DNA of 60,925 bases from Patescibacteria group bacterium (GTDB taxonomy: Bacteria > Patescibacteriota > Microgenomatia > UBA12405). Made by a program: the position numbers and the translations under genes. Under the pieces are notes generated by a model, which made no database searches, was not told the DNA's origin, and saw only the letters and a list, made by a program, of their open reading frames with translations. The stretch spans positions 1 through 60,925 of the forward strand of contig JAHIPV010000012.1 in NCBI GenBank assembly GCA_018902845.1, written 5' to 3'. Shown here in pieces: positions 11,906-56,742 of this stretch (the stretch's first letter is position 1; every line of letters starts with the position of its first letter).

Positions 11906-11977
11906 TCCCCTGTAGCTCAATGGTAGAGCATTCGACTGTTAATCGAAGGGTTCGTGGTTCGAGTCCACGCGGGGGAG
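11906..11977 (+). tRNA. tRNA-Asn(GTT), integration target
   Basis: TCCCCTGTAGCTCAATGGTAGAGCATTCGACTGTTAATCGAAGGGTTCGTGGTTCGAGTCCACGCGGGGGAG, a canonical cloverleaf. Confidence 0.97.
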
Positions 11978-13525
11978 CCTAGTCGTACTTAATATAACAG
12001 TATTGGCCTGTTGAAGCACATCAATAATCGGTTGGAATTTAATTTCAGCTATTTTTTTGTCTTTTATCAAAAACTCCTTAAAGAAAAAATGGAGATATGC
12101 CTTCTTAAGGTAAATATCTGCCTCTTTGTAGGCTTTTGCAATGTCTTGAGTAATAGCCATAACTTCTTCAATAAGATTTATGTCAACCGTTCTCACTTTG
12201 TCAATTTCCAATAGTTCTGTCTGAATATCTAGGAGGTCAGAATCTATTTTGGTAATAAGTCGTTTGTAGGTATCTCTATCAAACGTTCCTTCAAGCAATT
12301 CTTCCTCCAGTTTATCTCTCTTTAATTCAATTGCCACCTTTCGGTTGTTGATGGCCTTTTTAGATGCTTGAACTCTTTCTGTTGTATTGCTGTATACCTG
12401 ACTGATATTTCTTTTTACCGCTTCAATAAATTCGGGTTTAAATTGCAGTTTTTCTATTTCCTGTTCAACTTGTCCTTCTAGGTTCTCTAACAAGACATAT
12501 TTCTCCTTACAGCCTGTCCCACGTTTACCAAGACCTGAGCAATGATAATACCCTATCTTTCCACCTCGTGATTTAAACCTAGGGCCGTAATGCCATTCAG
12601 CTACAAACCTTCTGCCACAATTCTGACAAAACACGAAACCGTTTAATAAGAAATTATGCTTTCTTTTTCGGATACCGTAATCACCTTTACCTGCCAAGAT
12701 GTTTTGTACAATATCGAATATCGGTTTAGTAATTAATGGCTTATGTTTACCCATAACTTCTAGCCCTTTCCAACGCATTAGGCCGTAACAAAACGGATTA
12801 GTCAGAATCTTATAAACAGCCGAATAGTGAAGTTTTTTACCCAATCTGCCCTCAACCCCATTTTTTGTTAGAAATTGTGTAATTGAATAAATACTGTGGT
12901 CCCCAGTCGCATACATCATATAGGCTTGAGTAATAAATGGGGCTGTCTTTTCATCTTGGACTACTATCCTTTGGTCATAGCTTCCTGTCGGATTAGGATT
13001 AATGATATTTTTAAAACCCAATGTTGCAAATGCGGGCCAGATACCACTTTTAAGCTTTTCTCTAGCAGTTTGTTTTACTTTATAAGAAGTGAGTTTTGGT
13101 TGGATAGAATTTACCACTGCCAATAACTCGTCAATAGCTTCAGAAAAAGGATTGTTTTCATCAACCACCATTCCTGTTAGGGGAATGGTTTTAACCCCAT
13201 ACTTTTCTAGCTGTTTTTTTATAAACAAATATTCGAATGTATTTCTGGAGATACGGGAAGAATCCTGGACAACTAAATAGGATATATCGCCTTTGGAGCA
13301 ACGTACTAGCATCTCTTGAAGGGCAGGGCGGTTCATACTTGTACCACTTATTCCATTTTCCATATAAATATCTTCCGCTAGTTCACCACCTATTTCCTGT
13401 ATCTTTTCGAGAATTTTTGTTTTTTGAACATCGAGAGAAAGACCATTCTCCGCCTGGGAAATCGTACTTACCCTGTCGTACCCCAGGCACAAAGGAATAC
13501 TATTTTTTTCATTCTCTATTTTCAT
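11939..13525 (-). CDS. Large serine recombinase (integrase 1)
   Basis: YDRVST catalytic Ser, SRISRN, recombinase domain, CxxC..C zinc ribbon and coiled coil. The last codons are antisense to the tRNA. Confidence 0.95.
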   Translation of the reverse strand: MKIENEKNSIPLCLGYDRVSTISQAENGLSLDVQKTKILEKIQEIGGELAEDIYMENGISGTSMNRPALQEMLVRCSKGDISYLVVQDSSRISRNTFEYLFIKKQLEKYGVKTIPLTGMVVDENNPFSEAIDELLAVVNSIQPKLTSYKVKQTAREKLKSGIWPAFATLGFKNIINPNPTGSYDQRIVVQDEKTAPFITQAYMMYATGDHSIYSITQFLTKNGVEGRLGKKLHYSAVYKILTNPFCYGLMRWKGLEVMGKHKPLITKPIFDIVQNILAGKGDYGIRKRKHNFLLNGFVFCQNCGRRFVAEWHYGPRFKSRGGKIGYYHCSGLGKRGTGCKEKYVLLENLEGQVEQEIEKLQFKPEFIEAVKRNISQVYSNTTERVQASKKAINNRKVAIELKRDKLEEELLEGTFDRDTYKRLITKIDSDLLDIQTELLEIDKVRTVDINLIEEVMAITQDIAKAYKEADIYLKKAYLHFFFKEFLIKDKKIAEIKFQPIIDVLQQANTVILSTTRLPRVDSNHEPFD

Positions 13526-13527
13526 AA

Positions 13528-13722
13528 TTATCTACTATTTAATAACCCTATAACATTATTATAAGAACTATCTTTGTGGGAAACGACTGGTGCATTCTTT
13601 ATTTGTTTCAGTACCATTTCAACCCATAATTTAGCCATCTCATTTATATCAACCTCACCTCCAATAGGGGGGTGGGTAGGATTGCATTGTTCTTTGATTG
13701 ATATTGATTGGCTGGTTGTCAT
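13528..13722 (-). CDS. Small protein directly upstream of integrase (candidate directionality factor)
   Basis: 64-aa ORF ending 2 nt before the integrase start; the function is inferred from position only. Confidence 0.45.
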   Translation of the reverse strand: MTTSQSISIKEQCNPTHPPIGGEVDINEMAKLWVEMVLKQIKNAPVVSHKDSSYNNVIGLLNSR

Positions 13723-13728
13723 AGTCGT

Positions 13729-13917
13729 TCAGTGGGAAAAACATATCTCCCCATATAATTTCAAGAGGGCGGACGTGACCTCTAATAGGTCATCACTTAC
13801 GAAATTAATAAGACTCTTTTGACTTAGCTTTAAAAGTGCCCTTTTAACTCTTCTAAAAATAGAATGTCCTATTACTTGAGAAGTTATATTTTTAATAGTC
13901 ATTTCAATGTTTTTCAT
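13729..13917 (-). CDS. Small hypothetical protein
   Basis: Overlaps the stop of the upstream HTH gene; co-oriented. Confidence 0.35.
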   Translation of the reverse strand: MKNIEMTIKNITSQVIGHSIFRRVKRALLKLSQKSLINFVSDDLLEVTSALLKLYGEICFSH

Positions 13918-19588: not shown

Positions 19589-22276
19589 ATGGCATTACAC
19601 AAAGATTTTCCACGAGACCCATATGCAATACTTGACCCCAGTATTCGATGGTTTCCAGCCGATGAGGACTTGCGAGAAAAAGGATACGACAAACTGTTAC
19701 CTCCCCTTGTTGCCGACCTTAGAAATAAAGTAAAGGAATGGCGAGACAAACATTACGAAGGTGCAAGTGATACTTCCAAAGCCTTGTTGAATTGGTGGTT
19801 TAAAGAAGAACATATTTTATATGACCAACATGGTGTTTCTTCACCATTTCGATATTATTTTTGTCAAAGAGAAGCACTCGAAACTGTTATCTGGCTTTAC
19901 GAAGTAGCAAAAGTAAAAGATAAATACGACCTTATTAGATATAACTCGACAGGAGTATTGAGTGCGGGAATGTTTACTGAGGACTGGTTGCGTTTTGTAA
20001 TTAAAATGGCGACCGGATCAGGTAAAACAAAAGTAATGAGTTTAATGATCGCTTGGGCATATTTTCACAAGAAATATGAGCAAGATTCGCAACTCGCAAA
20101 GAATTTTCTTTTGATTACGCCAAACGTTATTGTCTTTGAAAGAATCAAGAACGACTTTGAAGGATTAAAAATCTTTTTTGCTGATCCTATTTTGCCAGAT
20201 AACGGATACCAAGGACAAAATTGGCAAGATGATTTTCAGATGACATTACACTTACAGGATGAATTAAGGACTGTTTCCGATACAGGTAATATCTTTTTAA
20301 CCAATATTCATCGAGTCTTTGAAGGAAATATCAAAGATGCCAGTTTAGAGGATGAAGATACATCTGCCTACTTTTTGGGTCACAAACCAGTTACTAAAAC
20401 AAATGATTCAACAGTCGACTTGGGAATGATTGTTAGGGATATCGATGAACTGATAGTAATAAATGATGAGGCGCACCACATTCACGACGAGAATATGGCT
20501 TGGTACAAGTCAATCCTAGATATTGATAATAGATTAAAACAAAAAGGCTCTGGATTAGCTTTACAACTCGATGTTACAGCAACACCAAAGAAGAATGACG
20601 GCTCGATATTTGTGCAAACGATAACAGATTATCCCCTTGTTGAGGCAATTCATCAAAGAATAGTTAAGAATCCCGTTGTTCCTGATGCTGCAAGTCGAGG
20701 AAAACTGAAGGAAAATCAAAGCGCACTATTTAGTGAGAAATATCGTGATTATATTAACCTTGGTATTGAAGAATGGCGTAAAACATACGAAGCACTAAAG
20801 CCGATGGACAAAAAATCAATTCTATTTATCATGACTGATGACACCAAGAACTGTGATGAGGTTGCTGAATATATAAAAACCAACTTTGCTGATCTAAGTA
20901 ATGCCGTTTTAACCATCCACACTAATAAAAGTGGTGAAATATCAGAAAGTGTTACAGGAAAAAATAAAGAAGAATTAAATTTATTGAGAAAACAGGCAAA
21001 TGAAATAGACAGCTGGGAAAGTCCTTTCAAAGTAATAATTTCTGTCATGATGCTTAAAGAGGGTTGGGACGTTAAGAACGTAACCACTATTGTTGGGCTT
21101 AGACCATATGCCGCTGATTCAAAAATACTTCCTGAGCAGACTCTCGGTAGAGGTCTAAGAAGAATGTTCTTTGGTCGTAATGATATTGAAGAATATGTTA
21201 GTGTGGTTGGCACCCCAGCCTTTATGGACTTTGTAGAGTCAATTAAAGGAGAGGGAGTTATTTTGGATAAGAAAGCTATGGGAGAAGGATCAAAACCGAT
21301 TGCTCCTACAGTTATTGAGGTAGATAAAGACAATCCTCATAAAGACATTGAAAAGCTCGATATCGAATTACCAGTTATGACACCAAGGATTCAAAGAGAA
21401 TATAAAAATCTTGCTGAGTTAGACGTATCCTCATTTGGAAACCAAAAAGTAAAAGTCAAAGTTTTCTCCGAAGAAGAAAAAAGGGAAATTGTATTTAAAG
21501 ATGTCGTTGATGAACAAACACATCACACCACTATTTTAACTGGCGATATTGAACCAGATTATAGAAGTGTTGTTGGTTTCTTCGCCCAGGCAGTAATGAG
21601 AGAACTAAGACTATTCGGTTGCTATGATATTTTATTTGGGAAAGTAAAAGAATTTCTTCAGAGCTATCTGTTTGACACGCCCGTAGATTTATCAGACCTA
21701 AATGTGTTAACAAATTTATCGGAAGTTGAATACATAAAACTGATTAAAGACTCATTCAAAAAAGCTATTAATGAGCTAACGGTTCAAGATAAAGGTGATA
21801 CTGAAATAAAAAATTACATCAAAATCAGCGATGCCCGACCTTTTGTAGTTAATGATAAAGCTTATTTATTACCTAAAAAGTCAGTATTCAACAAGATTGT
21901 CGGCGATAGTGATTTCGAGCTTACTTTTGCTGATTTTATTGAGAACTGTGAAGACGTAATTTCATTCTCTAAAAACTTTCAAAATAAGGAAGCCAGTGCT
22001 CTCCGAATTGAATATAAAAATTCCGAAGGCTTTATTGCCACCTACTATCCCGACTTTTTTGTTAAAAAAGACGACAAAACGGTTTACATTGTCGAAACAA
22101 AAGGTAGAGAGGAAGAAGATGATAAGTTGAAGTTTGAACGGTTACAAAAGTGGTGCGAGGATGTAAACAGTCGTCAAACCAGAATGGAATATAAAGCACT
22201 TTACATTAAACAAGAAGAATGGGAGAAATATACACCGAAAAACTTTGATGAGGCCGTAAGATTGTTTAGCAAATAA
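19589..22276 (+). CDS. res: Type III R-M restriction subunit (Res)
   Basis: MATGSGKT, DEAHH, TATP, EGWDV, QTLGRGLR, and C-terminal YPDF..VETKG nuclease motif. Confidence 0.9.
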   Translation: MALHKDFPRDPYAILDPSIRWFPADEDLREKGYDKLLPPLVADLRNKVKEWRDKHYEGASDTSKALLNWWFKEEHILYDQHGVSSPFRYYFCQREALETVIWLYEVAKVKDKYDLIRYNSTGVLSAGMFTEDWLRFVIKMATGSGKTKVMSLMIAWAYFHKKYEQDSQLAKNFLLITPNVIVFERIKNDFEGLKIFFADPILPDNGYQGQNWQDDFQMTLHLQDELRTVSDTGNIFLTNIHRVFEGNIKDASLEDEDTSAYFLGHKPVTKTNDSTVDLGMIVRDIDELIVINDEAHHIHDENMAWYKSILDIDNRLKQKGSGLALQLDVTATPKKNDGSIFVQTITDYPLVEAIHQRIVKNPVVPDAASRGKLKENQSALFSEKYRDYINLGIEEWRKTYEALKPMDKKSILFIMTDDTKNCDEVAEYIKTNFADLSNAVLTIHTNKSGEISESVTGKNKEELNLLRKQANEIDSWESPFKVIISVMMLKEGWDVKNVTTIVGLRPYAADSKILPEQTLGRGLRRMFFGRNDIEEYVSVVGTPAFMDFVESIKGEGVILDKKAMGEGSKPIAPTVIEVDKDNPHKDIEKLDIELPVMTPRIQREYKNLAELDVSSFGNQKVKVKVFSEEEKREIVFKDVVDEQTHHTTILTGDIEPDYRSVVGFFAQAVMRELRLFGCYDILFGKVKEFLQSYLFDTPVDLSDLNVLTNLSEVEYIKLIKDSFKKAINELTVQDKGDTEIKNYIKISDARPFVVNDKAYLLPKKSVFNKIVGDSDFELTFADFIENCEDVISFSKNFQNKEASALRIEYKNSEGFIATYYPDFFVKKDDKTVYIVETKGREEEDDKLKFERLQKWCEDVNSRQTRMEYKALYIKQEEWEKYTPKNFDEAVRLFSK

Positions 22277-22278: not shown

Positions 22279-23019
22279 ATGATTGGAATTTTTAACAGAG
22301 AAGAAGTTGTTATCGAGAATTCTTTTTTGACTAAATTTAAGAGCGAAATAAATTGTTTCAATAAATTATTGGGAGTATATACCGCCTTTCTTGAGGCTAC
22401 TTCTAATAAAATTAAGGATAATGAATATCCAAATTGGACTATCCTTATGCTTCTATCTCAGACCGTGTCGTTGATGGAGAATGGAATTAAGTTGCTTGCT
22501 ACTGGTTATTTGAGGTCTTCAGAAATAATGATACGTGTATGCGCCGAAGCGATTATCCTATCTACCTATTTTAAAGAATTCCCTGATTTTGAAATCGAAT
22601 ATAGGACCACAAACTACCGAGAATTTTTTAGAAATCACAGTATTGATAATATGCTCAAGAAAGTTGAAGAGGATGGAACGATATTTATTAAAGATAAAGA
22701 CAAAGCAAAACAAGTTAAGTGGAATAAAATTGTTTTCACTAATTTATTTAAGGAATCATCAAGATTTGTGCATAATAACTCAGATTTAATATATGATTTG
22801 TCAAAAAATAACTCAAATCAATCTGGTGATATACAGTTGATAATGGGACCCCAAAATTATTCTGATGAAATACTTTCAGTGGGGATGAGAAGATTATTTA
22901 ATACTCTTTTATTTTCTTTAGTTGTGCTTGGTGTTTCATTAAATATAGTTCCTGATGAAAACGAAAAAGAAATTATGACTCAAGCATCAGCTATTACTGA
23001 GATATTACTTAAAAAGTAA
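22279..23019 (+). CDS. HEPN-like helical protein (DUF5677-like); paralog of 48172-48957
   Basis: GY..S.I..R...E and S.FVH motifs are shared with 48172. Confidence 0.6.
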   Translation: MIGIFNREEVVIENSFLTKFKSEINCFNKLLGVYTAFLEATSNKIKDNEYPNWTILMLLSQTVSLMENGIKLLATGYLRSSEIMIRVCAEAIILSTYFKEFPDFEIEYRTTNYREFFRNHSIDNMLKKVEEDGTIFIKDKDKAKQVKWNKIVFTNLFKESSRFVHNNSDLIYDLSKNNSNQSGDIQLIMGPQNYSDEILSVGMRRLFNTLLFSLVVLGVSLNIVPDENEKEIMTQASAITEILLKK

Positions 23020-46084: not shown

Positions 46085-46636
46085 ATGATAGATTACAATA
46101 GATTTCCACTGACCCAAATGAAAATTCTTTTACGTCTCTGGGATAGTCCAGACAAGATGGGATTTGCTGAAGGTCGAGATGAAGGAGGAAGCGTTAAAGA
46201 ATTGTATAAAAAGGGATTTTTGGAACCGACAGGGAGGGACAGGCGCAGAATAAGGTGGAGATTAGTAAGCGGTAGATTAAGAGAAAATGACGTTATCTCC
46301 ATGAGGAAACTAGTAATACTACAATACTCAGGTTATGAAATAATTAAGTGGTCTGATGGTTTCAAGTTAGTCCCCAATAGCCTTAATATCGTTGCTTCTT
46401 TTATTGTTAAAAAGGAAAACTTTGTAGCTGGATTTGCTTTTAGGGTTGGGTACCTTGATTGGGTTGCGAAACAGTTGAGGGAAAAGAAAGAAGAAACAAT
46501 TAATAAAGCACTAAAAGTTATTGAGGATTATTTAACCAACAAGGAAGTAAAAAATCTGGAAGAATATACTTTTGAGTACTATTTTCCTGATTTTGTTAAA
46601 GTAGACAATCCAAAATGGTGGATAAAATCAAAATAA
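46085..46636 (+). CDS. Hypothetical protein with N-terminal winged-helix-like region
   Basis: Likely ATG at 46085; 'GGSVKELYKKGFLE'. Confidence 0.55.
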   Translation: MIDYNRFPLTQMKILLRLWDSPDKMGFAEGRDEGGSVKELYKKGFLEPTGRDRRRIRWRLVSGRLRENDVISMRKLVILQYSGYEIIKWSDGFKLVPNSLNIVASFIVKKENFVAGFAFRVGYLDWVAKQLREKKEETINKALKVIEDYLTNKEVKNLEEYTFEYYFPDFVKVDNPKWWIKSK

Positions 46637-46648
46637 ATTGAGATAAGT

Positions 46649-48154
46649 ATGAAAGCAAAAGATAAGCCTAAATTTGTTAAAGAAGCCCGTACGCTATTAG
46701 GAGAATTAGATGTTGAAAAGTTAATTAGCGACCCCAATGATTTAAAAATCTTATCAAAAATTAACCGCCTTATTGTAATTTTTACGGATTTTTCTTCGAA
46801 TGATGGGCAAGAATTGGAAAGGTTGTTAGCGGAGTATCAGAAATGGGGAAGAAGAAGCACAAGAGTAGGGCATATTAAAAATAGAGTTGTGGATATGTTG
46901 AGGTTCATTGACCAGAAAATTGGACAGATGGCTCTTTATGTTATCGAGGATGAAACTAGCAAATTGGTAAAATCCGCCGTTACTCAAGATGAAAAGTTTG
47001 ATGTTGCCTTCTCATTTGCAGGCGAACAAAGAGATTATGTGGCACAAGTTGCCCAACATGTTGAGAATAAAGGTAATATAAGTGTTTTTTATGATGATAA
47101 TTATGAGTTGGATATGTGGGGGAATAACATGGTCGATTATTTTAAGGATATTTTTGAGAACAGAGCAAATTATTGTGTAATGTTTATTTCAAAGGAGTAT
47201 GCCAATAAAACTTGGCCAAACTTTGAGAGACAAATTATTCAGGCAAAATCATTATTTCAAGAGGGGTATTTATTGCCAGTTAGGTTTGATGATACTCAAA
47301 TAAAAGGGGAAGTTTCTACGGTTAAGTATTTGAGTATTAAGGGCATGAAACCAGAAAATCTCGGTGAGAGAATAATCAAGAAGGTAGTTGGAAGTGACAA
47401 ATATACAGTAAAAAAAGAAACCAAAGTCGTAACGGTTACGAGTAAGGCAAACATTGCGACCCCAGAGGAAATACCACTTTTATACATAAAACCGAATGTC
47501 GGCAAACAGGGTGGCCCGAAAGGACACTTTCTTCATTTTACTGTAAAAAATATGTCTAATCAGGTGCTGTTTGACATTAATTGGGGCATGCGTGGTTTTA
47601 ACTATGAATGGAGACCTAAAACTGATTTTTTTGAGTTGGAACCAGAAAAAGAAAAAGAGTTGACATTTCCCCTTTCAAGTGAGGCGATATTTAAAGAAGA
47701 AATTCCTGAGTTAAATGTTTTTGCTGAATATAAAGACTTAGAAAATCGTCATTTTTTTGCAAGAAGAGAGCTCAAACAAGAAAAAGTTCCATCAGGAGCA
47801 TTTTTTGCTTTTAAAGCAGCTGAGTTCCATAAACCAAGCTTATTAAGGGATGATGGTTTAAAGTTATTATCAGGTCCAAACCTTATTGGAGATAGATACG
47901 AAATCGAGTTTGAAGTAAAGACTTCTAAAGGTATTGAAAAAGCAAAGATTGGAGTTAGTAAGACTTTTTTGTCGGTTTGGGATATGACTGAAGAAGATAA
48001 AGTTAAACAAGTTTTGGTTGAGTTGGGTCATAGGCAAATGAGAAAAATGACGAAAGAAGGTAGGGTGGGAGATTATGTGTTTGTAACAACAAGTTATCCG
48101 TTGGAATACCAAAGGGGGTTTGAAGGTTACAAAAAACTTAGAGACGCAATTTAA
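46649..48154 (+). CDS. TIR-domain protein with unknown N- and C-terminal domains
   Basis: FDVAFSFAGEQR, VFYD, FISKEY..WPNFE (catalytic Glu), LPVRFDD. Confidence 0.85.
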   Translation: MKAKDKPKFVKEARTLLGELDVEKLISDPNDLKILSKINRLIVIFTDFSSNDGQELERLLAEYQKWGRRSTRVGHIKNRVVDMLRFIDQKIGQMALYVIEDETSKLVKSAVTQDEKFDVAFSFAGEQRDYVAQVAQHVENKGNISVFYDDNYELDMWGNNMVDYFKDIFENRANYCVMFISKEYANKTWPNFERQIIQAKSLFQEGYLLPVRFDDTQIKGEVSTVKYLSIKGMKPENLGERIIKKVVGSDKYTVKKETKVVTVTSKANIATPEEIPLLYIKPNVGKQGGPKGHFLHFTVKNMSNQVLFDINWGMRGFNYEWRPKTDFFELEPEKEKELTFPLSSEAIFKEEIPELNVFAEYKDLENRHFFARRELKQEKVPSGAFFAFKAAEFHKPSLLRDDGLKLLSGPNLIGDRYEIEFEVKTSKGIEKAKIGVSKTFLSVWDMTEEDKVKQVLVELGHRQMRKMTKEGRVGDYVFVTTSYPLEYQRGFEGYKKLRDAI

Positions 48155-48171
48155 AAAATTAAAATATTACG

Positions 48172-48957
48172 ATGAACAATATTGGAATATTTTCCGAACA
48201 GGAAATAATCATAAATAATAAATTTTTTGTGTTATGCGCTAAAGAATATGAATTGCTTGTGAAGCTATTGCAACACAAGGAAAGTCTTGTTATGCAACTT
48301 AGTGGAAAGATTAAGGACACAGATAAACCTGATTACTCAATTGAGTTGATGCTTGCATACAACCTTCCTTTATTGAATGGCGCTGTAGAAAACTTAGCTA
48401 ATGGATACTTGGGGGTTTCTCAAATAATATTAAGGACGGTGTTAGAGAATACATGTCTGTCTATGTATTTTTTTGAATTTCCTAAAGATGAAAAGAAATA
48501 TAGGAAAAACAGAAAGTCATTTAATTGTAAGCTTAATGAATTGGGGTATGATACTTGGATAGAGGGGTGGTTAAATCGAATAGACAAAGAAGGTGAGAAA
48601 TTTTCAAAGCTGAAGGGAGAAGATAATGCTTGGTATCGGAGAATTTTCACAAACATTGTCAGCGAAGCTAGTTCTTTTGTGCATGTAGATATAGATTTTA
48701 TCTATGGTTTGGTTTATATAGATACTGGTGAAGAAAAATCTGATTACGCTCTTGGTCCAAACTGGTCAGATGATTTATTGGTAAAAAATGCATTATGGAA
48801 AATTATTGAAACATGTTTATATAGTTGTGCTGTTTTAGACAGAGTTTTTAAGAAATACATAACTGTCATTGATATGGCTTTATATAAGGATGCAATTAAC
48901 CAGTTAAACAATTGGAAAAAATTTTATGATAAAACAAATAGGAAAAAAAATAATTAA
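48172..48957 (+). CDS. HEPN-like helical protein (DUF5677-like); paralog of 22279-23019
   Basis: IGIFSEQEIIINNKF vs IGIFNREEVVIENSF; SSFVH; LGPN. Confidence 0.6.
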   Translation: MNNIGIFSEQEIIINNKFFVLCAKEYELLVKLLQHKESLVMQLSGKIKDTDKPDYSIELMLAYNLPLLNGAVENLANGYLGVSQIILRTVLENTCLSMYFFEFPKDEKKYRKNRKSFNCKLNELGYDTWIEGWLNRIDKEGEKFSKLKGEDNAWYRRIFTNIVSEASSFVHVDIDFIYGLVYIDTGEEKSDYALGPNWSDDLLVKNALWKIIETCLYSCAVLDRVFKKYITVIDMALYKDAINQLNNWKKFYDKTNRKKNN

Positions 48958-49519
48958 AAAAACCTCTTCGAGTGTACAAAGTAAACCTAATGAATATTTG
49001 ATAATCGACGAAGAAAGCAATGCAGTTGATTACTTAGTTCAATCTTGTGAATTTTTAGATAAAATTGAGAAAAATCGTTTATATATAAAGTGGTTTATTA
49101 TCGCTTTTCATGGCGCTATTTACTCCTTCATGATGTTGGCTTTATTAAAAGTAAATTCAGCTCAAATTTTTAGAGATAAAAAGAATAGCAAGCATCCGAT
49201 TGACCGTGATTTATTAAGTTTTTTGCAAATATACTTTTTACTTAAGAATAAAGACAATATGGGACAAAATCCGTTTATTTCAACAAATTATCATGATGAT
49301 TGTATGCAAGAACTGAATGATGAATTAAGGAATTTGATGATGCATTTTAGACCAATGGTGTGGGCAACAGAACCTTGGTATCCAGCCAGTGTTTGCTATC
49401 CTTTGCTTGATATTTTGAAATTTTGTATAAACCAAATACAATTTCGGCATTCAGATAATGCAACATTGCTAGCATACATAAATAGAGTCAGGGACTTATT
49501 AAGTAAATATAAAAAGTAG
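48926..49519 (+). CDS. HEPN-like protein
   Basis: KWFIIAFHGA, LRNLMMHF (RxxxxH). Confidence 0.6.
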   Translation: MIKQIGKKIIKKTSSSVQSKPNEYLIIDEESNAVDYLVQSCEFLDKIEKNRLYIKWFIIAFHGAIYSFMMLALLKVNSAQIFRDKKNSKHPIDRDLLSFLQIYFLLKNKDNMGQNPFISTNYHDDCMQELNDELRNLMMHFRPMVWATEPWYPASVCYPLLDILKFCINQIQFRHSDNATLLAYINRVRDLLSKYKK

Positions 49520-49602
49520 ATAAAAGCAATTTTATATTCTGTTTTGGACACGAGAAGAATGGGTGGTAAAATTCATAAATATAAAAATGTCTGAATCAAA
49601 AA

Positions 49603-49998
49603 ATGAATATTGAAGTAAAAAACCAAAAAATTTGGATTGGGTTGATTTTTGTAGCCTTAATTTCTAGTCTTTTGTCGGTTTTTATAAGTTTAAAACCAAC
49701 ACAACAGGCAAAAACTAATTTTCCTGCCAACGACAATCTCTGTAGTACAAATGACCTTTTAGAAATAAAAATGAAACTAATTTCAAGACAAACTTTCAAT
49801 CAAAGGTTGGTTTTTTCAGAAGGAATTTATAGTCTCACCGAAGAGGAATTAAACAACAAATGTATTCCAGAAAATTTCAGAAAAGAGTATAAAATTGCAC
49901 GGGACTGTTATTTGAGTAATAAAGGTTGTTCTCAGAACGGTTTTTTTGAGGAATTAAAGAAATTTCTCGAGATAACAACTCCAAGTAAAACTAATTAA
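49603..49998 (+). CDS. Small membrane-anchored protein
   Basis: N-terminal TM and four Cys. Confidence 0.55.
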   Translation: MNIEVKNQKIWIGLIFVALISSLLSVFISLKPTQQAKTNFPANDNLCSTNDLLEIKMKLISRQTFNQRLVFSEGIYSLTEEELNNKCIPENFRKEYKIARDCYLSNKGCSQNGFFEELKKFLEITTPSKTN

Positions 49999-50005
49999 AG
50001 CATAT

Positions 50006-51670
50006 TTACACCGTTGATAAAGCCAAACTAGGTTGCTTTGTTATTTTTTTAATTTCTTCCCATCTCTGTCTTAATACCCCAATATAAGCCACATTTTGAA
50101 AGCTTTCTAAGATTTCTTTGATGTTTATATCTTTTATATTAGTGCAAGGATTAGGGAGCACGTTTGACTTTTTTGGTCGTTTTGCGAGTATAAAATAAGG
50201 TTTTTTCCAGTCCCATAGGAGTTTTCCGTCTTTCCATATAAGGTTCTCACAGAAAATACTTACCATCTCTCTCTTATTCTCTGGTAAAGCCATTCGTAAA
50301 CGTTTAGTAACGTGTTTAATATTATCTAGAAAGCCATACATTAACTCGTTCAGTTCGTGAGCCACATCTTCACACTTCACAACAGTCTTTCTCAGAGATG
50401 CCTCTTTTTGGTAACTATCTTCTTTTAAACGATCATATTCACTTTTTGTCAGATCATCTTCAGCAAATTTTCGCCCCAACTTATTTTGTAGTCTTTTTTC
50501 CGTCCTAATTTGTCCAGTAAGACCCATAACTTGTCTTTTGATATTGATTCTTTCTGGCTGGTTTAATTCAGCAACATATTCACGAGCCACCTTCCACGTT
50601 TTCTGATCAATTTCTAAAAATTCAAAAGCTTTCATAAGCTCATCCTCAAGTTTCTTCTCAGGTACATAAGCTCGTTTAACCCCTTTACAGGGAAGTTTTC
50701 TTTTTCCACACCGATAATAGGTAATACCTTTCTTGTGAGTACCAGAGAGCATTTCACCACAAAACTCACATTTAACAATCCCTGAATAAGCATAATCTAG
50801 ACGTGCCCTTTGCGGATGTTTACGTTCATTTATCACTTCTTGTACCTGGTAAAATAACCCTGAAGTAACTAAATCCTCGTATTTGCCCACAACCTTCTCT
50901 CCATCAGAATAAAAGATACTGGTATATTGGATATCACGCAACCGGTTACACCAAGTATTTTTTGCAATCTTTCCCGTAGTGCTCTTTTTACTCCTGGATC
51001 TTAATCCAATACTGTAAGCATAGTCAGTTATTTCATTAAAAGTGTACATACTTGACGCAAACTGTTCAAAAACTTGTTTGACTAATGGGCCTGTTTCAGG
51101 GTCTATAATCCATTTTTTTCTACCAACAGGGCCACGAGTCATATAGCCCAATATCGCCGGTCTAGCAGGATGTCCCATTATCCGAGCCTTAGTTTTCATA
51201 CCTTCCCTAGTTCTATAGCCAGTCTCATCACTTGATTTCTTAGACATAGCGAACTCAATTGCTACCATTAACTGGTCAGACGATGAGTCAGTGAATGTCT
51301 TTGTGGCAGTGTAGATGCGTTTAATAACCCCGCTTTGCATATACCACAAAAGTAAGCCCCCATCACCAAAATTACGGGCAAGGCGACTAATTTCTGTACA
51401 AACGATGCCATCTACTTCACCTTCGTGCTCTTCTAGATATTTAAGCATTTTATTAAAATCATCACGGACAAACGCTTCATATCCCGTCTTGTCATCTTCA
51501 AAAACAGGACAAACAAGTTCTAAATCGTGGTTCTTGATTGCCTCTTTAACAAAATTACGCTGGTATCGAATAGAATTAAGTTGTTTGTGCTCTTTTCCTC
51601 CTTTGTTGTCTTCCGATGATTTTCTTATATAGGCAACAACCTTGTTATATTTTTTTACATCATCCTTCAT
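50006..51670 (-). CDS. Large serine recombinase (integrase 3)
   Basis: YIRKSSE, SRLARN, CEFCG..YYRC..C zinc ribbon. Confidence 0.95.
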   Translation of the reverse strand: MKDDVKKYNKVVAYIRKSSEDNKGGKEHKQLNSIRYQRNFVKEAIKNHDLELVCPVFEDDKTGYEAFVRDDFNKMLKYLEEHEGEVDGIVCTEISRLARNFGDGGLLLWYMQSGVIKRIYTATKTFTDSSSDQLMVAIEFAMSKKSSDETGYRTREGMKTKARIMGHPARPAILGYMTRGPVGRKKWIIDPETGPLVKQVFEQFASSMYTFNEITDYAYSIGLRSRSKKSTTGKIAKNTWCNRLRDIQYTSIFYSDGEKVVGKYEDLVTSGLFYQVQEVINERKHPQRARLDYAYSGIVKCEFCGEMLSGTHKKGITYYRCGKRKLPCKGVKRAYVPEKKLEDELMKAFEFLEIDQKTWKVAREYVAELNQPERINIKRQVMGLTGQIRTEKRLQNKLGRKFAEDDLTKSEYDRLKEDSYQKEASLRKTVVKCEDVAHELNELMYGFLDNIKHVTKRLRMALPENKREMVSIFCENLIWKDGKLLWDWKKPYFILAKRPKKSNVLPNPCTNIKDINIKEILESFQNVAYIGVLRQRWEEIKKITKQPSLALSTV

Positions 51671-51993
51671 TTTTTAGCCTTTGTTACCGTCCTATTAAAT
51701 TTGAGAATGGTTTCTATTAGAGGATACCTTTTCTTTTTTCCGTCAAGTACTTTTACTAATTCTGTAAGATCAGTTTTAATGACCCGTTGCTTTATTGTTT
51801 TCTCTCCAATTTTCCTATCTTTGTATATAATCTCGGCCTGAGGTTCAGTGTAAATTTTTCTAACCACATTGACGAACCTTCTGATCCCGTTCATTAGAAC
51901 CAAGACTTCTTTTTCGCTTAATTTTGAATCACGTTTTTTTAGATAGGAAATAAGTTTTTTCTGTGCTTGCGTTGGCTTGTTTTGTTTTTTCAT
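51667..51993 (-). CDS. Small basic protein coupled to integrase 3 (candidate directionality factor)
   Basis: Its stop overlaps the integrase start (ATGA); function inferred from position. Confidence 0.6.
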   Translation of the reverse strand: MKKQNKPTQAQKKLISYLKKRDSKLSEKEVLVLMNGIRRFVNVVRKIYTEPQAEIIYKDRKIGEKTIKQRVIKTDLTELVKVLDGKKKRYPLIETILKFNRTVTKAKK

Positions 51994-52013
51994 TGAAAAT
52001 AAACAAGGGTGAT

Positions 52014-52376
52014 TTACCTGTCAAGAAATTCACTCAATTTACAATAAACAGCATCAAAACACTTTCTTTTAGGGAATTTTTTCTCTTCTTTTGCCGAATA
52101 CAGCAAACATTTAACGTAATAACCATCTTGAGTAATAACAAACCACAATCTACAACCTTCTGAAGGTGACATTTTTGGGTTAGAAGTCCCCACTCTCTGT
52201 TTGCAAATTTTAAAACCCTGGTTTGTAGCTATCTGACACGATAAGTTGCCTCCGTTTCTAGCTTGGTTTTGATGATAGTTAAAATACTTTTTCAAATCTT
52301 CCTTAAGAGACTTAAGTTTTTTTAACCTCTTAAGGTCAGATAAAATCAAATCATTTCCACAATCAATGAGATCCAT
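52014..52376 (-). CDS. Putative RelE/ParE-like toxin
   Basis: 'KICKQRVG..SEGCRLWFVI..LLYS'; overlaps the Panacea-like gene. Confidence 0.6.
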   Translation of the reverse strand: MDLIDCGNDLILSDLKRLKKLKSLKEDLKKYFNYHQNQARNGGNLSCQIATNQGFKICKQRVGTSNPKMSPSEGCRLWFVITQDGYYVKCLLYSAKEEKKFPKRKCFDAVYCKLSEFLDR

Positions 52377-52974
52377 TTTTCAAGTTATCGCCTTTCAATT
52401 TTTCATTGATTTTTTTCATCAGGCTATAAAACTTATCACTTGAAAAAAACTTTTTCGCTTCACTATCTTCTAAATCTAGGTCTTCTTCACTAGATTCACG
52501 GTACTGGACTAAACCATAATCAATAACACCACCCATTTCAGGAGTTGCTAAATAAGGAAAATCTTGATGAGAAATATGGCTTATCTCACGTGGAGTCAAA
52601 TCTTGATATGCTTCGTTCACTTGATTTATTACTAGTAATTCTGAATCTGAAAATTGTTCCTCTGGAGAAATGTCAGCATTGCTAATCGAAAAAGTTTTTT
52701 GAGAAGTTCCATAGTAGTTCTTACCCTCCAGAATACAAATCAAATTCTGATCTTTCAATTTCTTCAAAACAGAAGGAAGGCCATAAATCGTCGGGCCAAA
52801 ATGATTTTTACGATACTTTAATCCGGTAATGGATTTCTCGCACTGTGAATAAAACCCAAAATCACAAAAATACAAAAGCTTCTGTAATTTCGTTTCAGTA
52901 AGCTTTGAATTATTGTAGTTACGCAATATATACAGTACTAACGCTCCCAATTTGCTATCTATTTTTTGACTCAT
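52363..52974 (-). CDS. Panacea/SocA (DUF4065) antitoxin
   Basis: TKLQKLLYFCDF..SITGLKY..HFGP..ISHISH. Confidence 0.85.
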   Translation of the reverse strand: MSQKIDSKLGALVLYILRNYNNSKLTETKLQKLLYFCDFGFYSQCEKSITGLKYRKNHFGPTIYGLPSVLKKLKDQNLICILEGKNYYGTSQKTFSISNADISPEEQFSDSELLVINQVNEAYQDLTPREISHISHQDFPYLATPEMGGVIDYGLVQYRESSEEDLDLEDSEAKKFFSSDKFYSLMKKINEKLKGDNLKNGSH

Positions 52975-53152
52975 TTATCCACCCTAGTTAAAGTATACAA
53001 CAATCATCACACCAGAGGTCAAGAAACTCAAGACCTTTGGTTTTAGATATTTCTTACAGTTTGTGCAGGTTGACAATAAGGTGTTTTTTTTGAACCTAAT
53101 CTGATCCGCAAAATCCGCATAACTTTCTTCATAAGTACATAAACACCGTCTC

Positions 53153-53371
53153 TTAAAAAGGGAACAAGTCTCGAACTTTCACTTCCAATGTTCTTGCTAG
53201 CCGGTAAATTGTTTTCAGTGAAGGTTTCCGACTGCCTGCTTCGATAAACTGAATATACTTGGTGCTCAGTTTTGTTTTCTCAGCTAATTGATCTTGGGTT
53301 AATCCAGCCAATTTCCGATATTTCTTTATCTTTTTACCAAGTCGAATATCTTTTTCTGTAACCATACCCAT
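53153..53371 (-). CDS. XRE-family HTH regulator
   Basis: LGKKIKKYRKLAGLTQDQLAE..YIQFIEAG.RKPSL. Confidence 0.9.
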   Translation of the reverse strand: MGMVTEKDIRLGKKIKKYRKLAGLTQDQLAEKTKLSTKYIQFIEAGSRKPSLKTIYRLARTLEVKVRDLFPF

Positions 53372-53470
53372 AGGGTATGAATAATATGGTGTTTGTAGAA
53401 CCAACCGTGTGTATCTATTTAGCTACAAAAATGGCTTGTTTTTACACCAACTATTTGTTACCATCTCCTT

Positions 53471-54106
53471 ATGAAGAAATGGGAAAATAAGAAATGGGAA
53501 GAAATGACAAAAATTGAGAAGGCAATAGGTTTGTTTATTGTTTTCTCGATCATCTCCATTATCGTCTCCAAGGTTTTACCTTCAAAGACAGTAAATGTGG
53601 CAGAACTAGACACTACAGAAGTTTCTCCCAGTCCAACCGAAGTAGAAAAATCAGACGAGCAAGTGCTCGAAGAAAAACTAATTAACATTGTGAAAACCGA
53701 TGGAAGTAATATGAATTTTAGAAAACTAGACGCAGAAGAACCCAGTCTCGACAACCCAGAAGACAGCCAATTAACGAGAGTAAGTATTGATGTAAAAAGT
53801 TTTCTCAACAAAGACCACTTACTAAGAAGTACTGGTAAGTTATCATCATCTATTTTTCAGGCAATCTATGGTGCTGAGAATATAGAAACATACAATACTA
53901 CTATCTGGTATTACGGAGAAACAACCGATCGATATGGTAACACTAACAATAATGCTGTTTTAATCTACACCGTAAACAAAGATACCTATGAAAAAATAAA
54001 TTGGGATAACTTTAACCAGTATGACCTCTGTGATTTTCTTAAAAACGAGGAAATACTGACAGGTAAGAATAATACTAGATGTGACACACTGGTTAACATT
54101 GAATAG
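53471..54106 (+). CDS. Membrane-anchored extracytoplasmic protein
   Basis: N-terminal TM, SPSPT linker, 'DRYGN..KINWDNF'. Confidence 0.7.
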   Translation: MKKWENKKWEEMTKIEKAIGLFIVFSIISIIVSKVLPSKTVNVAELDTTEVSPSPTEVEKSDEQVLEEKLINIVKTDGSNMNFRKLDAEEPSLDNPEDSQLTRVSIDVKSFLNKDHLLRSTGKLSSSIFQAIYGAENIETYNTTIWYYGETTDRYGNTNNNAVLIYTVNKDTYEKINWDNFNQYDLCDFLKNEEILTGKNNTRCDTLVNIE

Positions 54107-54142
54107 ATATTTCAAAGATTAGGGTCAGAAAAACCGAACCAA

Positions 54143-54568
54143 TTATGGCATCGTTGGCACTCCGTTCATGACTTGTTGTAGTTCTTTAAAACCAACTATT
54201 TCACTAAAATTACTCTCTCTTTCTAAATCATCACACAATTTATTAAGTTCATCATCTGTAGGTCTCATCTTAAGCTCTTTTCTTATTGAAAACTCATTTC
54301 TAGCCTTTCTTTCTAAATACCACTGAGAAATTCTAATGTCACCTTTTTCTAGAGCATTAAATATTGTCTTCTTTGCTAATAAAATTGGATTAGTTTTATA
54401 CTCCTCTTTTTGCTCCGAAAATTCAGGATTCTTTTTCTGATAATCATACAGAGTTTGAGATCCAATATTGGCGTAAATACAGGCCTCTCGATCGCTAAGA
54501 CCCATTAAAAAAGCCCCTTTAAGTCTAGCCAGAGTTTCCGTAGTCATTACTGTTGGCCTTCCGATCAT
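54143..54568 (-). CDS. Terminase small subunit-like HTH protein
   Basis: GRPTVMT..EACIYANI..TLYDY..NPEF..WYLERK..EF. Confidence 0.65.
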   Translation of the reverse strand: MIGRPTVMTTETLARLKGAFLMGLSDREACIYANIGSQTLYDYQKKNPEFSEQKEEYKTNPILLAKKTIFNALEKGDIRISQWYLERKARNEFSIRKELKMRPTDDELNKLCDDLERESNFSEIVGFKELQQVMNGVPTMP

Positions 54569-54590
54569 AAATAATTATACCGAAACAGTG

Positions 54591-55796
54591 TTACCCTTTT
54601 ATCCACCCTGGCTTAATATCGATTGATTCTACAACCCCACTCCTTGTTTTAATAACTAGTTTTAGCGTGTCTCGATCTAAGTCTGGCATTTTCCTTGGAT
54701 ACCTTATCCCCTCGCTTTCTGTATCCGATACGTAAAATTGATAGTTACCCCTATCGTTCGCATCAACTTTTAGTTCCTGATCTAGTTTAAGTCCTTCAAA
54801 TAAAAAGTGACTGGTTTTCCAAATACCGTCTGTATCTTTAGCCTCGATCGCAATAGATGTTATAAAATCAGGTCGATTATTTTCGTAATTGTCTACTAAC
54901 AACACCGATGTAAAACTTGAACCATTATATGCGGCATAATTGTCCCAAAATATTTCATTGTTAACCAAACTAAACTGAATTTTTTGTTTTGTTTTTGTTT
55001 TTTGACCTTCGCTTTTAAATGCTTGATATTGCCGTAATTCTTTAACCGATCCTCCTTTTTCTGCACACTCCTGTAACAATCTGTTAAGGCAAATTGGTTC
55101 TGGTATGCAATCCATTTCTATTAGGTCATTACTAGTACCTATCTGTCGGTGCAAACCATCATCTGCTATATCTTTAAAGCTTAACAATTTTCTTAGATAA
55201 CTTTTGTCAGTTGTTCCCCAACGATGATTATTTACCACACCATTGAAATTAACCTGTCCCAATAGAGGAGGAATGTGATCTAGTATTGCTCTAATTAAAG
55301 CTGATGTGGTGTAGGGGTAGTTGTTTCTATAGCTTACATTAAGTTCGTTTAGTAATGATAACAATTTTTTATAGTTAAAAGGATCTTGTTTCTTCAAGAA
55401 TAAACCCACAACTTCTCCCTTAACATAGCCTCTTTTTTTACTATTAGCCACATCATTTTCTGGTGTGTTTACCTTTTTCCCACCGTGGTAAGCAACTGCT
55501 TTAATCAAATATTGTGGAGCCAATTTTAATAAATGAAAGGCTGTTGTCGAATTATATTCAGAATATACATTTTCAAAAACATCGATATTATTATGCCCAA
55601 ACATTGATACCGATGGAACTTGCCCGCCATTGGCTTTTACTATAAGAGTTTTCAATTCCTCGTACCTCTTTGCTAAATCTTCTCGATACTCACCAGCTTC
55701 TTTTGAATTAAAAAAGTCTCGGTTTGCAAAAAATTTCTCCTTGTAAGCTTTTGTTTTTTTAAGTAATTGTTTTAATCTGTCGATGTTGTTTCTCAC
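54591..55796 (-). CDS. Hypothetical multidomain protein, possible Abi/HEPN-like central domain
   Basis: ELN.SY..ALIRAILDHIPP..ADDGLH. Confidence 0.55.
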   Translation of the reverse strand: MRNNIDRLKQLLKKTKAYKEKFFANRDFFNSKEAGEYREDLAKRYEELKTLIVKANGGQVPSVSMFGHNNIDVFENVYSEYNSTTAFHLLKLAPQYLIKAVAYHGGKKVNTPENDVANSKKRGYVKGEVVGLFLKKQDPFNYKKLLSLLNELNVSYRNNYPYTTSALIRAILDHIPPLLGQVNFNGVVNNHRWGTTDKSYLRKLLSFKDIADDGLHRQIGTSNDLIEMDCIPEPICLNRLLQECAEKGGSVKELRQYQAFKSEGQKTKTKQKIQFSLVNNEIFWDNYAAYNGSSFTSVLLVDNYENNRPDFITSIAIEAKDTDGIWKTSHFLFEGLKLDQELKVDANDRGNYQFYVSDTESEGIRYPRKMPDLDRDTLKLVIKTRSGVVESIDIKPGWIKG

Positions 55797-56077
55797 AATG
55801 TCTCAATTATATCTCACAATTAGATTCGTAAATTCGATCAACAAAATGAGTACCTGTACAATCTTGCTACTATATTTGGGCAAAATTCTGTGGCGAAGGA
55901 CGATTTTCAAAGCAACTAACTAAAACAGAAATGTCATATTCAGTAGCTGGAATAGGTGTAAGTAACTGTTTAACAAAATAAGTTCTCACAGCTTTCAGCC
56001 ATCGGAGCCAGCCATTCTTATCTACAACTTTTGTGTATCCCGCCGTGGAAGCCAGAACCTTTGGTAAAATCAGATCA

Positions 56078-56656
56078 ATGAAAAACAAAACAAAAATTCT
56101 GTTTACCACTCCGATTAAGGATGTCATTGCGAATTATAAAACTGGCGAAAAGTGTGTCCTAGTTTCAAATGAAGCCACTAACAAATTTACAAAGGCCGAT
56201 CTAATAAAAATAATTAAAATATGTAATCAACCTCCAGTCTATAATTTTTTATTTAAATATAGACTTAAAAGTAAACCATATGAACTTAATGATGCTAAAG
56301 AATTTACTAAATGGATTGTTGAAGGATGGAATAAACAAAAGTGGTTTGTCTTCTTAATTCGTAACAGTCAAGATAAAATTATTGGAGCAATTGACATAAA
56401 ATCAGACAATCTGGATTTGGCAGAAATTGGCTATTGGGCAGATGGTAATAGTTTAGGGATTATGACAAACGCCACCCAAAGATTAATTGAACTAGCAAAA
56501 AAAGCTGGTTATAAAAAACTGTACGCCACCACAATGCCAAATAACGATCGTTCTCAAAGTGTGTTAACAAGAAACGGTTTTATTCGTGACGGAGAGATGG
56601 AAAAATCAAGCGGTATGCGTTTTAAATTCACCAAGAATTTATCACCACAATCCTAA
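56078..56656 (+). CDS. RimJ/RimL-family GNAT acetyltransferase
   Basis: IIGAI, AEIGYW..GIMT, N.RSQSVLTRNGF. Confidence 0.85.
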   Translation: MKNKTKILFTTPIKDVIANYKTGEKCVLVSNEATNKFTKADLIKIIKICNQPPVYNFLFKYRLKSKPYELNDAKEFTKWIVEGWNKQKWFVFLIRNSQDKIIGAIDIKSDNLDLAEIGYWADGNSLGIMTNATQRLIELAKKAGYKKLYATTMPNNDRSQSVLTRNGFIRDGEMEKSSGMRFKFTKNLSPQS

Positions 56657-56742
56657 TTTCCTCCAAGGCGGGGAGCACAAAAAATCAAAAATCGCGCACA
56701 AAAAATAACTGATATAAAGGCTTTATCGTACCATATCAGTTT

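Follow-up and report, generated by a model that had tools for sequence, protein, structure and literature searches.

Serine integrases are valued as tools because they are strictly one-way without a separate directionality factor. Here we describe three genes for such enzymes, the large serine recombinases (LSRs) Int1, Int2, and Int3, in a 60,925-nt stretch of DNA from a Patescibacteria (Microgenomates-group) genome of 1.06 Mb and 34% G+C. This stretch, called the window below, is the entire 60.9-kb contig JAHIPV010000012.1 (assembly GCA_018902845.1). It holds a tandem array of three integrative defence islands, units 1 to 3, in an ultra-small groundwater bacterium. The best explanation of the array as a whole, to which we give a probability of about 0.8, is that the attachment site attP of the Int1/Int2 family straddles the integrase reading frame and that integration splits the gene.

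The principle is already in print for a serine recombinase (DsiB, 2011). In the ssrA islands of Dehalococcoides, the CcrB-like DsiB is encoded at the attL edge by an open reading frame (ORF) that always crosses attL into the target RNA gene or the neighbouring island, and McMurdie et al. (2011) suggested that dsiB may work fully only when circularised or when placed downstream of a neighbouring island in which the 3' fragment lies (PMC3146451). Compared with the parts of that paper cited here, the window likewise has an LSR at the attL edge with an ORF overlapping attL, and tandem islands downstream of a small RNA gene. The best NCBIfam models for Int1 and Int2 are also CcrB/CcrC, below cut-off (169 bits for Int2 against CcrB, where the cut-off is 900). 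The target differs, being ssrA (transfer-messenger RNA, tmRNA) with a 20-bp direct repeat of the 3' end in Dehalococcoides and tRNA-Asn with 5 nt at junctions 1 to 3 in the window. So does the gene content, in that Dehalococcoides has an integration module of six genes that includes a second, small serine recombinase (DsiA), where the window has the three integrases only. The C-termini, as far as those parts of the paper describe them, are divergent with no conserved tail shown, whereas those of the window are conserved, are under purifying selection, and track their own LSR.

Tyrosine recombinases offer further parallels. The target of Mx8 is a tRNA-Asp gene, and the SSV-type integrases of archaeal viruses are split near their N-terminal part by integration into a tRNA gene, giving two large fragments. 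For Mx8, the accounts of Tojo 1996 and Magrini 1999 given in two later papers (PMC6070905, PMC4383910) place attP within int and describe a new 3' end and changed properties after integration. The second of these, the Islander paper of 2014, adds in the part cited here that both the Mx8 and the SSV integrases extend across attP, and says that no serine integrases are known to target such genes (PMC4383910), meaning genes for tRNA. With Mx8 IntP/IntX the window shares a crossover inside the integrase coding sequence and a C-terminus altered by integration, and with the SSV type an integrase gene that spans attP and is broken up when the element enters a tRNA gene. Both of these are tyrosine recombinases, that of Mx8 belonging to a phage, whereas the window has serine recombinases of cargo islands; the latter would work alike without being members of the same group.

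An earlier note on this DNA, made from the sequence alone, had likened the arrangement to mycobacteriophages with attP inside a repressor gene. In that integration-dependent immunity, integration at an attP inside a gene truncates the product and alters how stable it is; a repressor gene is split there and a recombinase gene here, and the analogy is not the closest, as DsiB, Mx8 IntP/IntX, and the SSV integrases are closer. TP901-1, TnpX, CcrB/CcrC, and XisF resemble the enzymes of the window in their domain set, short att core, and symmetric attP arms, but their attP or element ends lie outside the recombinase ORF, and none of them is known to target tRNA genes. The Int sequences match the catalytic domains of solved structures and, below cut-off, the NCBIfam models CcrB, CcrC, and XisF. 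No paper on serine-integrase islands in tRNA genes of Patescibacteria with attP inside the gene was found in a literature search that did not cover supplements. What the window adds to the published principle is the targeting of a tRNA gene, a conserved and selected tail that tracks its own LSR, a family that extends across the Patescibacteria, and a presence/absence polymorphism at the exact core.

Junctions of the array

The order along the window is dnaG (8658-10448), rpoD (10506-11591), and then tRNA-Asn (GTT anticodon; 11906-11979, plus strand, found with ARAGORN), and relatives keep this order. Downstream of this tRNA gene, which is the integration target, the three LSR islands stand head to tail, with the pentamer GGAGC on the plus strand at each of four junctions (11974-11978, 35867-35871, 50155-50159, and 56672-56676). 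As the earlier note had observed, all three integrase genes cross this core near their 3' end: the minus-strand GCTCC falls in the same phase (xxG CTC Cxx, encoding Leu) in all three ORFs, and the four cores share that phase. Int1 (528 aa as integrated; 11939-13525, minus strand) extends to Leu517 and then, as had also been noted, reads PRVDSNHEPFD and a stop codon from the antisense strand of the tRNA gene, the 3' end of which serves as the B arm and is antisense to the last 11 codons of Int1. Int2 (549 aa as it stands; 35706-37355, minus strand) extends to Leu496 and continues into the tail of unit 1, and Int3 (554 aa; 50006-51670, minus strand), a distant LSR with 22% identity to Int1 and Int2, extends to Leu505, which crosses the core of junction 3 in phase, and continues into the tail of unit 2. 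The long tails of Int2 and Int3 (53 aa and 49 aa), the resemblance of which the same note had pointed out, proved to be homologous to each other. The pentamer itself is not enriched in the window (39 matches on both strands, 28 of them on the plus strand, versus 40.6 expected); its count was therefore dropped as evidence, and the weight rests on position, phase, and independent evidence.

All three proteins have the build of an LSR, with a resolvase domain (PF00239, E-values from 6e-17 to 1.5e-35) carrying the serine nucleophile, followed by recombinase (PF07508) and zinc-ribbon (PF13408) domains. The R-V-S catalytic motif is invariant in a 48-sequence alignment (R9 and S11 in Int2). In an AlphaFold2 model of Int2 as it stands, the body is confident (mean pLDDT 80.8) and long paired helices follow the zinc ribbon (343-390 and 396-424). 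A tblastn search of the contig with Int1, Int2, and Int3 found no recombinase beyond these three genes. Catalysis of attP x attB recombination is putative; the presence or absence of unit 1 at the exact junction, described below, points to it indirectly.

Three independent lines, from relatives, population data, and rebuilt attP sites, identify the junctions as real unit boundaries. The alignment of Int1 with Int2 (35% identity) stops exactly at the core Leu (residue 517 of Int1 and 496 of Int2). Int2 homologues with 57-75% identity lose similarity at residue 496, and Int3 homologues with 62-68% identity (in genomes G061 and G070, the latter at a true tRNA-Asn) do so at about residue 506; Int1 homologues that read into tRNA-Asn are 84% (locus L133) and 54% (G035) identical. 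Comparison of 14 tRNA-Asn regions from 13 relatives showed that apparently empty sites (n = 5) read GGGGGAGC followed by A and that LSR-occupied sites read GGAGC followed by C. The right side of junction 4, where GGAGC is followed by ACAAAA, matches the empty-site pattern. Searches with the right flank of the array gave no usable match (weak matches only for its DNA against 41 relatives, and nothing for its proteins and those of unit 3 against the tRNA-Asn loci of relatives), so the empty sites are comparable only over the first bases past the tRNA.

Junctions 1 to 3 have only the 5 nt in common, and junction 4 bears a diverged motif resembling the tRNA end. The symmetry of attP has its centre at the G that precedes AGC, and with the elements of G035 and G078 included the bases common to the junctions narrow to GAG, which makes GA the likely dinucleotide of the crossover. 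At junction 1, which is attL of unit 1, and at the other cores, the crossover most probably takes place at the GA of GGAGC, inside a Leu codon that lies 50-54 codons before the natural stop. The mature tRNA-Asn is unharmed, as the exchange is limited to bases past the acceptor stem.

For population evidence, Logan contigs of four groundwater runs (X2, X4, X7, and X8) were compared with positions 35400-55399 of the window; two of the four are possibly the source of the assembly, and X7 and X8 come from separate studies. Each of the four runs has a 55-nt contig in which the tRNA-Asn 3' end (25 nt identical to 11949-11973) is joined to 35867-35896, which makes junction 2 a branch point of the assembly graph with the tRNA-Asn 3' end as its alternative left side. 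This contig coexists with one that joins unit 1 to unit 2. In X2 the depths of the two joins, 47.9 (tRNA-Asn to unit 2) and 80.6 (unit 1 to unit 2), together match that of unit 2 itself (127.2), and in X4 they are 49.6 and 40.6, versus 75; roughly 37-55% of the population lacks unit 1. X4 also has a contig of 23,948 nt, the length of unit 1, with its end at 35896. Since the tRNA-Asn/unit 2 junction breaks at 35867 in all four runs, unit 1 is a discrete unit that is present or absent in nature, and it is bounded by the core at 35867, which lies within the Int2 ORF. The earlier note had left room for a crossover elsewhere; the population breakpoint falls on the core.

No alternative joins across junction 3 were found among the X2, X4, and X7 contigs. 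In X8, the summed depth of the contigs listed over 50074-50740, to the right of junction 3, is 23.7, versus 142-158 in the flanks. Many contigs of metagenome-assembled genomes (MAGs) end at tRNA-Asn or within about 50 nt of the core codon (L035 in G022, L025, L029, contig C3 of G015, contig C8 of G021, and several more), which is what assembly-graph branching at polymorphic junctions would produce.

To rebuild attP, the right end of each unit was joined to its own left end, and the product was compared with all 756 ordered pairings of the window's GGAGC sites. Unit 1 gives GTTATATTAAG-25 nt-CTTAATATAAC, an 11-nt perfect inverted repeat that is the sole longest among the 756 pairs. Its P' arm repeat CTTAATATAAC (11988-11998, plus strand) lies inside the Int1 coding sequence, where it encodes VIL, and its P arm repeat GTTATATTAAG (35845-35855, plus strand) lies inside the tail coding sequence, where it encodes NIT. 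For unit 2, joining what lies left of junction 3 to what lies right of junction 2 yields an attP with a 9-nt inverted repeat (50134-50142 and 35882-35890) that is among the top 5 of the 756, and the G035 and G078 elements have, by inspection, a like layout with the G that precedes AGC as its centre. A short att core with two-fold attP symmetry is thus found for units 1 and 2 and not for unit 3, where the longest run is 3. Circles joined in silico at the core, a check proposed in the earlier note, have open integrase ORFs of 570 aa for Int1 (528 as integrated), 545 aa for Int2 (549), and 519 aa for Int3 (554). The idea in that note that the circle encodes a long isoform and the integrated state a truncated or chimeric one is supported for units 1 and 2 and not for unit 3.

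Tails and their owners in relatives

Relatives of these integrases were sought across the order (132 genomes, 29 of which have an LSR match at E <= 1e-30) and in a search of one genome per species, with a 4-sequence alignment as the query, that provided 80 of 128 confirmed loci. A 9-sequence alignment, used as the query instead, had no conserved stretch. Relatives with names are MAGs of Daviesbacteria, Roizmanbacteria, Shapirobacteria, Gottesmanbacteria, Levybacteria, and other Patescibacteria. An alignment that covers the core codon, with an identity of at least 30%, was possible for 65 of the 80 loci; the codon is CTC preceded by G in 55 of the 65, and GCTCC is present in 52. In 30 of the 65 loci (29 of them at tRNA-Asn) the core codon lies 1-4 nt from the 3' end of an antisense tRNA, and in about 8 further loci the contig ends within some 50 nt of the core. 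The usual integrated endings are LPRVDSNHEP, LPREDSNLEP, LRD, and LPR, each before a stop codon, and the antisense-tRNA endings amount to 3-16 junk residues.

A tail profile was built from eight long tails and used in a six-frame search of the DNA of the loci. This search resulted in 25 significant matches in the 80 loci, all 25 on the LSR strand. Four are contiguous with a family LSR, and the remaining 21 lie 6.1-11.5 kb upstream, spread over 20 of the 41 loci in which the upstream flank reaches its full 10 kb (17 with orphan tails and 3 with tails fused to another LSR). In all 11 orphan or fused tails that could be placed at the first profile position, the tail starts with G and CTC in the recombinase phase. 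Single elements, such as those of G035, G078, L136, and L132, also carry orphan tails.

The tails fall into types that correspond to clades of LSRs. LSRs of the Int1 clade have a type A tail (F[EQ][DN]F[KR]) in 4 of 4 units, plus unit 1, and those of the Int2 clade have a type B tail (YIGELRQRWEEIKKL) in 15 of 15 units, plus unit 2 and G078. In the window, the type A tail (35706-35870, minus strand; 54 codons including the core Leu; E = 2e-16 with the tail hidden Markov model, HMM) is read as the true 3' end of the Int1 gene, now joined to Int2 in the same frame; over codons 14-36 it has 78% identity with the tail of the L133 unit, the LSR of which is 84% identical to Int1. The type B tail (50006-50158, minus strand; 50 codons, containing YIGVLRQRWEEIKKIT; E = 5e-21) is read as the true 3' end of the Int2 gene, now fused to Int3, and its nearest relatives are far-end orphan tails of Int2-clade units (L121 and G078). 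The LSR of G078 is 59% identical to Int2, and its own far-end tail ends in ATV, compared with STV in unit 2. In tandems the types are mismatched, with a type A tail on Int2 and a type B tail on Int3, and likewise in L130, L133, L113, and L115. Tail type, as classed by these motifs, follows the LSR at the opposite end of the unit. The earlier note had proposed that each element stores its integrase tail at its opposite end and had asked for conservation among homologues; the tails are conserved, as seen in the profile matches and the two types, and the proposal is borne out for the last 50-54 codons of units 1 and 2 and not for unit 3.

It could be argued from the same ORFs that the long tails simply belong to the integrases they adjoin, with unit boundaries past the stop codons and nothing swapped, since Int2 and Int3 are uninterrupted as assembled and their tails are alike. 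We consider this extremely improbable: homology to close relatives ends at the Leu, the population breakpoint at 35867 is inside the Int2 ORF, the tail type tracks the far-end LSR and mismatches the adjoining one, and single elements carry orphan tails.

When 1.84 billion proteins were searched with the tail profile, 293 cluster representatives matched. Nearly all of the best 150 of these are short pieces of 35-130 residues, and the 14 longer matches that were examined are C-terminal pieces of other LSR families or clades fused to tails, i.e., tandems.

Other tails were also seen at these loci. L107 (LSR at 10001-11593, tRNA-Asn about 100 nt on at 11699-11771) has a third tail type, FQNP..W.EQ.RERLKQI, and the core codon CCC in place of CTC; all that seems to be left there between the LSR and tRNA-Asn is the tail end of an older unit. 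L121 and L101 have Int2-clade LSRs with other tails (beginning LKKWNEFRTLS and LPLVDIFKNRQIEF) and a distant second LSR about 5 kb on, so that far-end tails seem to exist for other LSR families at tRNA-Asn too. LSRs that are more distant still, from the same order and from other Patescibacteria (L044-L056 and L144-L152), read antisense into tRNA-Gln, Asp, Ser, Lys, and Leu, with recurrent DSN-type endings such as WDSNPR, so that the targeting of tRNA genes by serine integrases looks general in Patescibacteria.

Coding constraint on the tails

Substitutions were counted by the Nei-Gojobori method on tail codons 14-36, which lie beyond the att arm. Between the L136 and L130 tails there are 9.0 synonymous changes over 12.7 sites and 1.0 non-synonymous change over 56.3. 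Proportions of synonymous (pS) and non-synonymous (pN) differences are 0.74 and 0.07 for L136 and L132, both orphans; 0.62 and 0.10 for L131 and L132, both orphans; 0.76 and 0.11 for unit 1 and L133; and 0.77 and 0.18 for unit 2 and L121. For the orphan tails, pN is 0.02-0.14 and pS is 0.4-0.85. By these counts the orphan tails are under strong purifying selection at the protein level, and the dN/dS test that the earlier note had called for thus gives values far below 1. In codons 1-13, which form the att arm, synonymous change is lower (pS 0.12-0.55), a pattern expected of constraint at the DNA level. A Pfam search with 13 tails found nothing below E = 0.06.

Such constraint might also be shown by a small gene in its own right, or by a DNA or RNA element, that is no part of the recombinase. 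Gene callers did call many of the pieces as short proteins, and 11 of 22 orphan segments have some in-frame start codon upstream. The other 11 lack any in-frame start codon ahead of the tail, and the length of the stretch upstream ranges between 0 and 40 codons, which makes an independent small gene unlikely; all 11 placeable tails start with G and CTC in the recombinase phase, the substitution pattern is protein-like, and the strand is always that of the LSR. Taken together, this leaves a separate gene or element with very little probability.

Somewhat less improbable, and still very unlikely, is an accident of compaction in which attP merely overlaps the gene at its 3' end and the tail is without function. 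The integrated ORFs, otherwise intact, end in anything between 3 and 16 junk residues, a conserved tail is missing from unit 3, and McMurdie et al., in the part of their paper cited here, raised variable C-termini as a trivial explanation for DsiB (PMC3146451). A functionless tail is hard to square with a pN well below pS past the att arm, with the retention of YIGELRQRWEEIKKL in 15 of 15 Int2-clade type B tails, or with the 293 cluster representatives that match the tail.

Unit 3 and the 26-nt motif

Unit 3 (about 6.5 kb, 50160-56671) ends in a 26-nt motif, TCCTAATTTCCTCCAAGGCGGGGAGC (56651-56676, plus strand), which resembles a decayed tRNA-Asn 3' end and holds the junction 4 core at its end. 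Antisense to it is a 15-aa frame, LPALEEIRIVVINSW followed by a stop codon (56628-56675), which is in frame at junction 4, as the earlier note had reported; it is not homologous to the two long tails. The similarity of the window to contig C13 of G000 ends exactly at 56676. Copies of the motif (TCCTRAYTTnnTCCAAGGCGGGGAGC) occur three times on C13 (at about 612-637, 2614-2639, and 20693-20718), which has no LSR, five times within 9 kb of G026 (L163), twice inside the array of G042, and immediately left of the LSR in G078, G093, and G085. It is always on the tRNA strand and ends in GAGC at the core, beyond which the sequence diverges. The motif divides arrays into cassettes, many of them without a recombinase (on C13, type I restriction-modification, GNAT, and HIT-like genes), and its copies may be scars left by earlier insertions, or else sites through which cassettes can be moved in trans. 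C13 also has diverged copies of both GNAT genes of the window (at 130-228 and 1999-2616; 82% identity over 33 aa to the gene at 60109-60732 and 74% over 206 aa to that at 56033-56656), which suggests either a paralogous island or a strain variant within this bin.

The frame was considered as an integrase tail and rejected, as the repeated pseudo-tRNA-like motif is also found in arrays without an integrase. No conserved tail is present in the close Int3 homologues of G061 and G070. A search for the far end of the G070 homologue gave one weak motif 6.5 kb away, and DNA similarity between G070 and unit 3 is confined to the integrase genes (69% over 1.5 kb). Given the recurrence of the motif, the lack of tail conservation in Int3, and the asymmetric attP, the 15-residue frame is a by-product of the DNA site, and there is no sign of an isoform switch for Int3. 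A fragment of Int3 is also present in G026.

Mechanism

The sequence of events that would account for the array is as follows. Each island would be inserted by its own LSR at the tRNA-Asn 3' end. In the Int1/Int2 family, attP would straddle the reading frame, with arms encoding VIL in the body and NIT in the tail. After integration, the body would stay beside the tRNA gene and read on into the antisense tRNA, and the real tail would be orphaned at the far end, such that the integrated element would encode an altered enzyme, as with Mx8 IntX. In a tandem, the next integrase would pick this tail up in frame, Int2 receiving that of Int1 and Int3 that of Int2, and excision to a circle would restore the full-length gene.

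Several observations weigh against this account. No circular junction was found among the run contigs over 35400-55399, a region that excludes junction 1, and an exact search of the assembly for 12 alternative junctions found none, as expected of a consensus. The polymorphism of unit 1 could result from insertion only, without excision. No LSR body joined to the tail of its own clade was seen among the database matches examined. For unit 3, the rebuilt attP lacks symmetry and the "tail" is a DNA motif; in G042 there are 29 nt, and not 12, between the tail repeat and the core. Finally, the tail is a low-confidence helix (503-530, pLDDT 40-65) in the AlphaFold2 model of Int2, which holds no docking information.

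The data nonetheless demonstrate that the gene is split by integration and that the split-off piece is maintained as coding sequence. As the orphan tails are kept as protein-coding, the full-length enzyme must presumably be made at some stage, and the only states that give a full-length protein are the excised circle, with its own tail, and the tandem, with the homologous tail of a neighbour. The tail most likely serves the enzyme encoded by the circle, in attP x attB recombination or its control.

Beyond this, the tail of 45-50 residues may be a state-dependent control module, a self-contained directionality switch for islands without a recombination directionality factor (RDF), in which the full-length enzyme would integrate and the tail-less one would excise or be silenced. 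We offer this as a speculation and would not expect it to be correct. In the SPbeta system, according to the part of a cryo-EM preprint cited here, the C-terminal helix of an RDF of about 58 residues restrains the coiled coil, and a fusion of Int with RDF is functional (PMC11722253). By analogy, a C-terminal helix with a role in directionality is physically plausible, no more. If the tail were such a module, tandem neighbours would trade tails, and the arrival of one island would re-arm or re-programme the next integrase.

Under a different and rather unlikely reading, the tail would be needed for any activity, such that integration is one-way and self-inactivating, the integrated enzyme is dead or crippled in the manner of SSV, arrays grow by insertion and decay, and excision is rare or needs the tail of a neighbour. 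Consistent with this, arrays contain many cassettes or remnants without an LSR (as marked by the three, five, and two copies of the 26-nt motif on C13, in G026, and in the G042 array), G026 has the Int3 fragment, L107 has its mutated core codon CCC, and no RDF was recognised among the cargo. It sits less well with the intact catalytic, recombinase, zinc-ribbon, and coiled-coil parts of the integrated ORFs, with the absence of unit 1 at the exact junction from a large share of the population (roughly 37-55%), which fits ongoing gain or loss, and with the occurrence of the element family across many lineages of Patescibacteria.

Cargo and flanks

Annotation with Pfam assigned the cargo of the islands mainly to defence-related and unknown genes. 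Unit 1 (about 23.9 kb, 11979-35866) encodes a helix-turn-helix (HTH) protein, which together with unknowns adjoins Int1, a type III-like restriction-modification system (methylase and Res helicase), Hypoth_Ymh, an Mrr-type nuclease, and unknowns; after the type III genes there is a weak DUF5677 match at 22279-23019. Unit 2 (about 14.3 kb, 35872-50154) encodes an N6/N4 methylase, an 847-aa helicase/nuclease-like protein, a TIR-domain protein, a DUF5677 protein, and unknowns. The 501-aa TIR-domain protein (46649-48154) adjoins the DUF5677-like protein (48172-48957), and this pair and the DUF5677 match of unit 1 are candidate defence genes of unknown type. Unit 3 encodes a SocA/Panacea antitoxin-like protein, a GNAT acetyltransferase, and unknowns. 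No phage or conjugation genes were recognised by Pfam among the cargo, and no RDF among that of units 1 to 3. A scan of viral contigs with the 4-sequence alignment gave 41 pattern matches and zero relatives of the recombinases; there is therefore no sign that the islands are phages.

To the right of the array (56743-60732) lie a PP-loop ATPase-like gene, two radical SAM/SPASM genes, and a GNAT gene, which together look like a peptide-modification cluster. None of the relatives examined has an equivalent of it downstream of tRNA-Asn, so the cluster may itself be accessory.

Conclusions

The observation made in the earlier note is real, and its anatomy is confirmed for units 1 and 2 and not for unit 3. 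Serine integrases do target tRNA genes, at least in Patescibacteria, and the defence genes of these ultra-small bacteria are carried in exchangeable islands stacked at one tRNA. The split also explains a set of artefacts, namely integrases with DSN-type endings from antisense tRNA, short "proteins" that are orphan gene ends, and contigs that break at the junction. If the proposed mechanism is true, the state of the DNA would rewrite the C-terminus of the enzyme, which would be a new coupling of recombinase activity to integration state.

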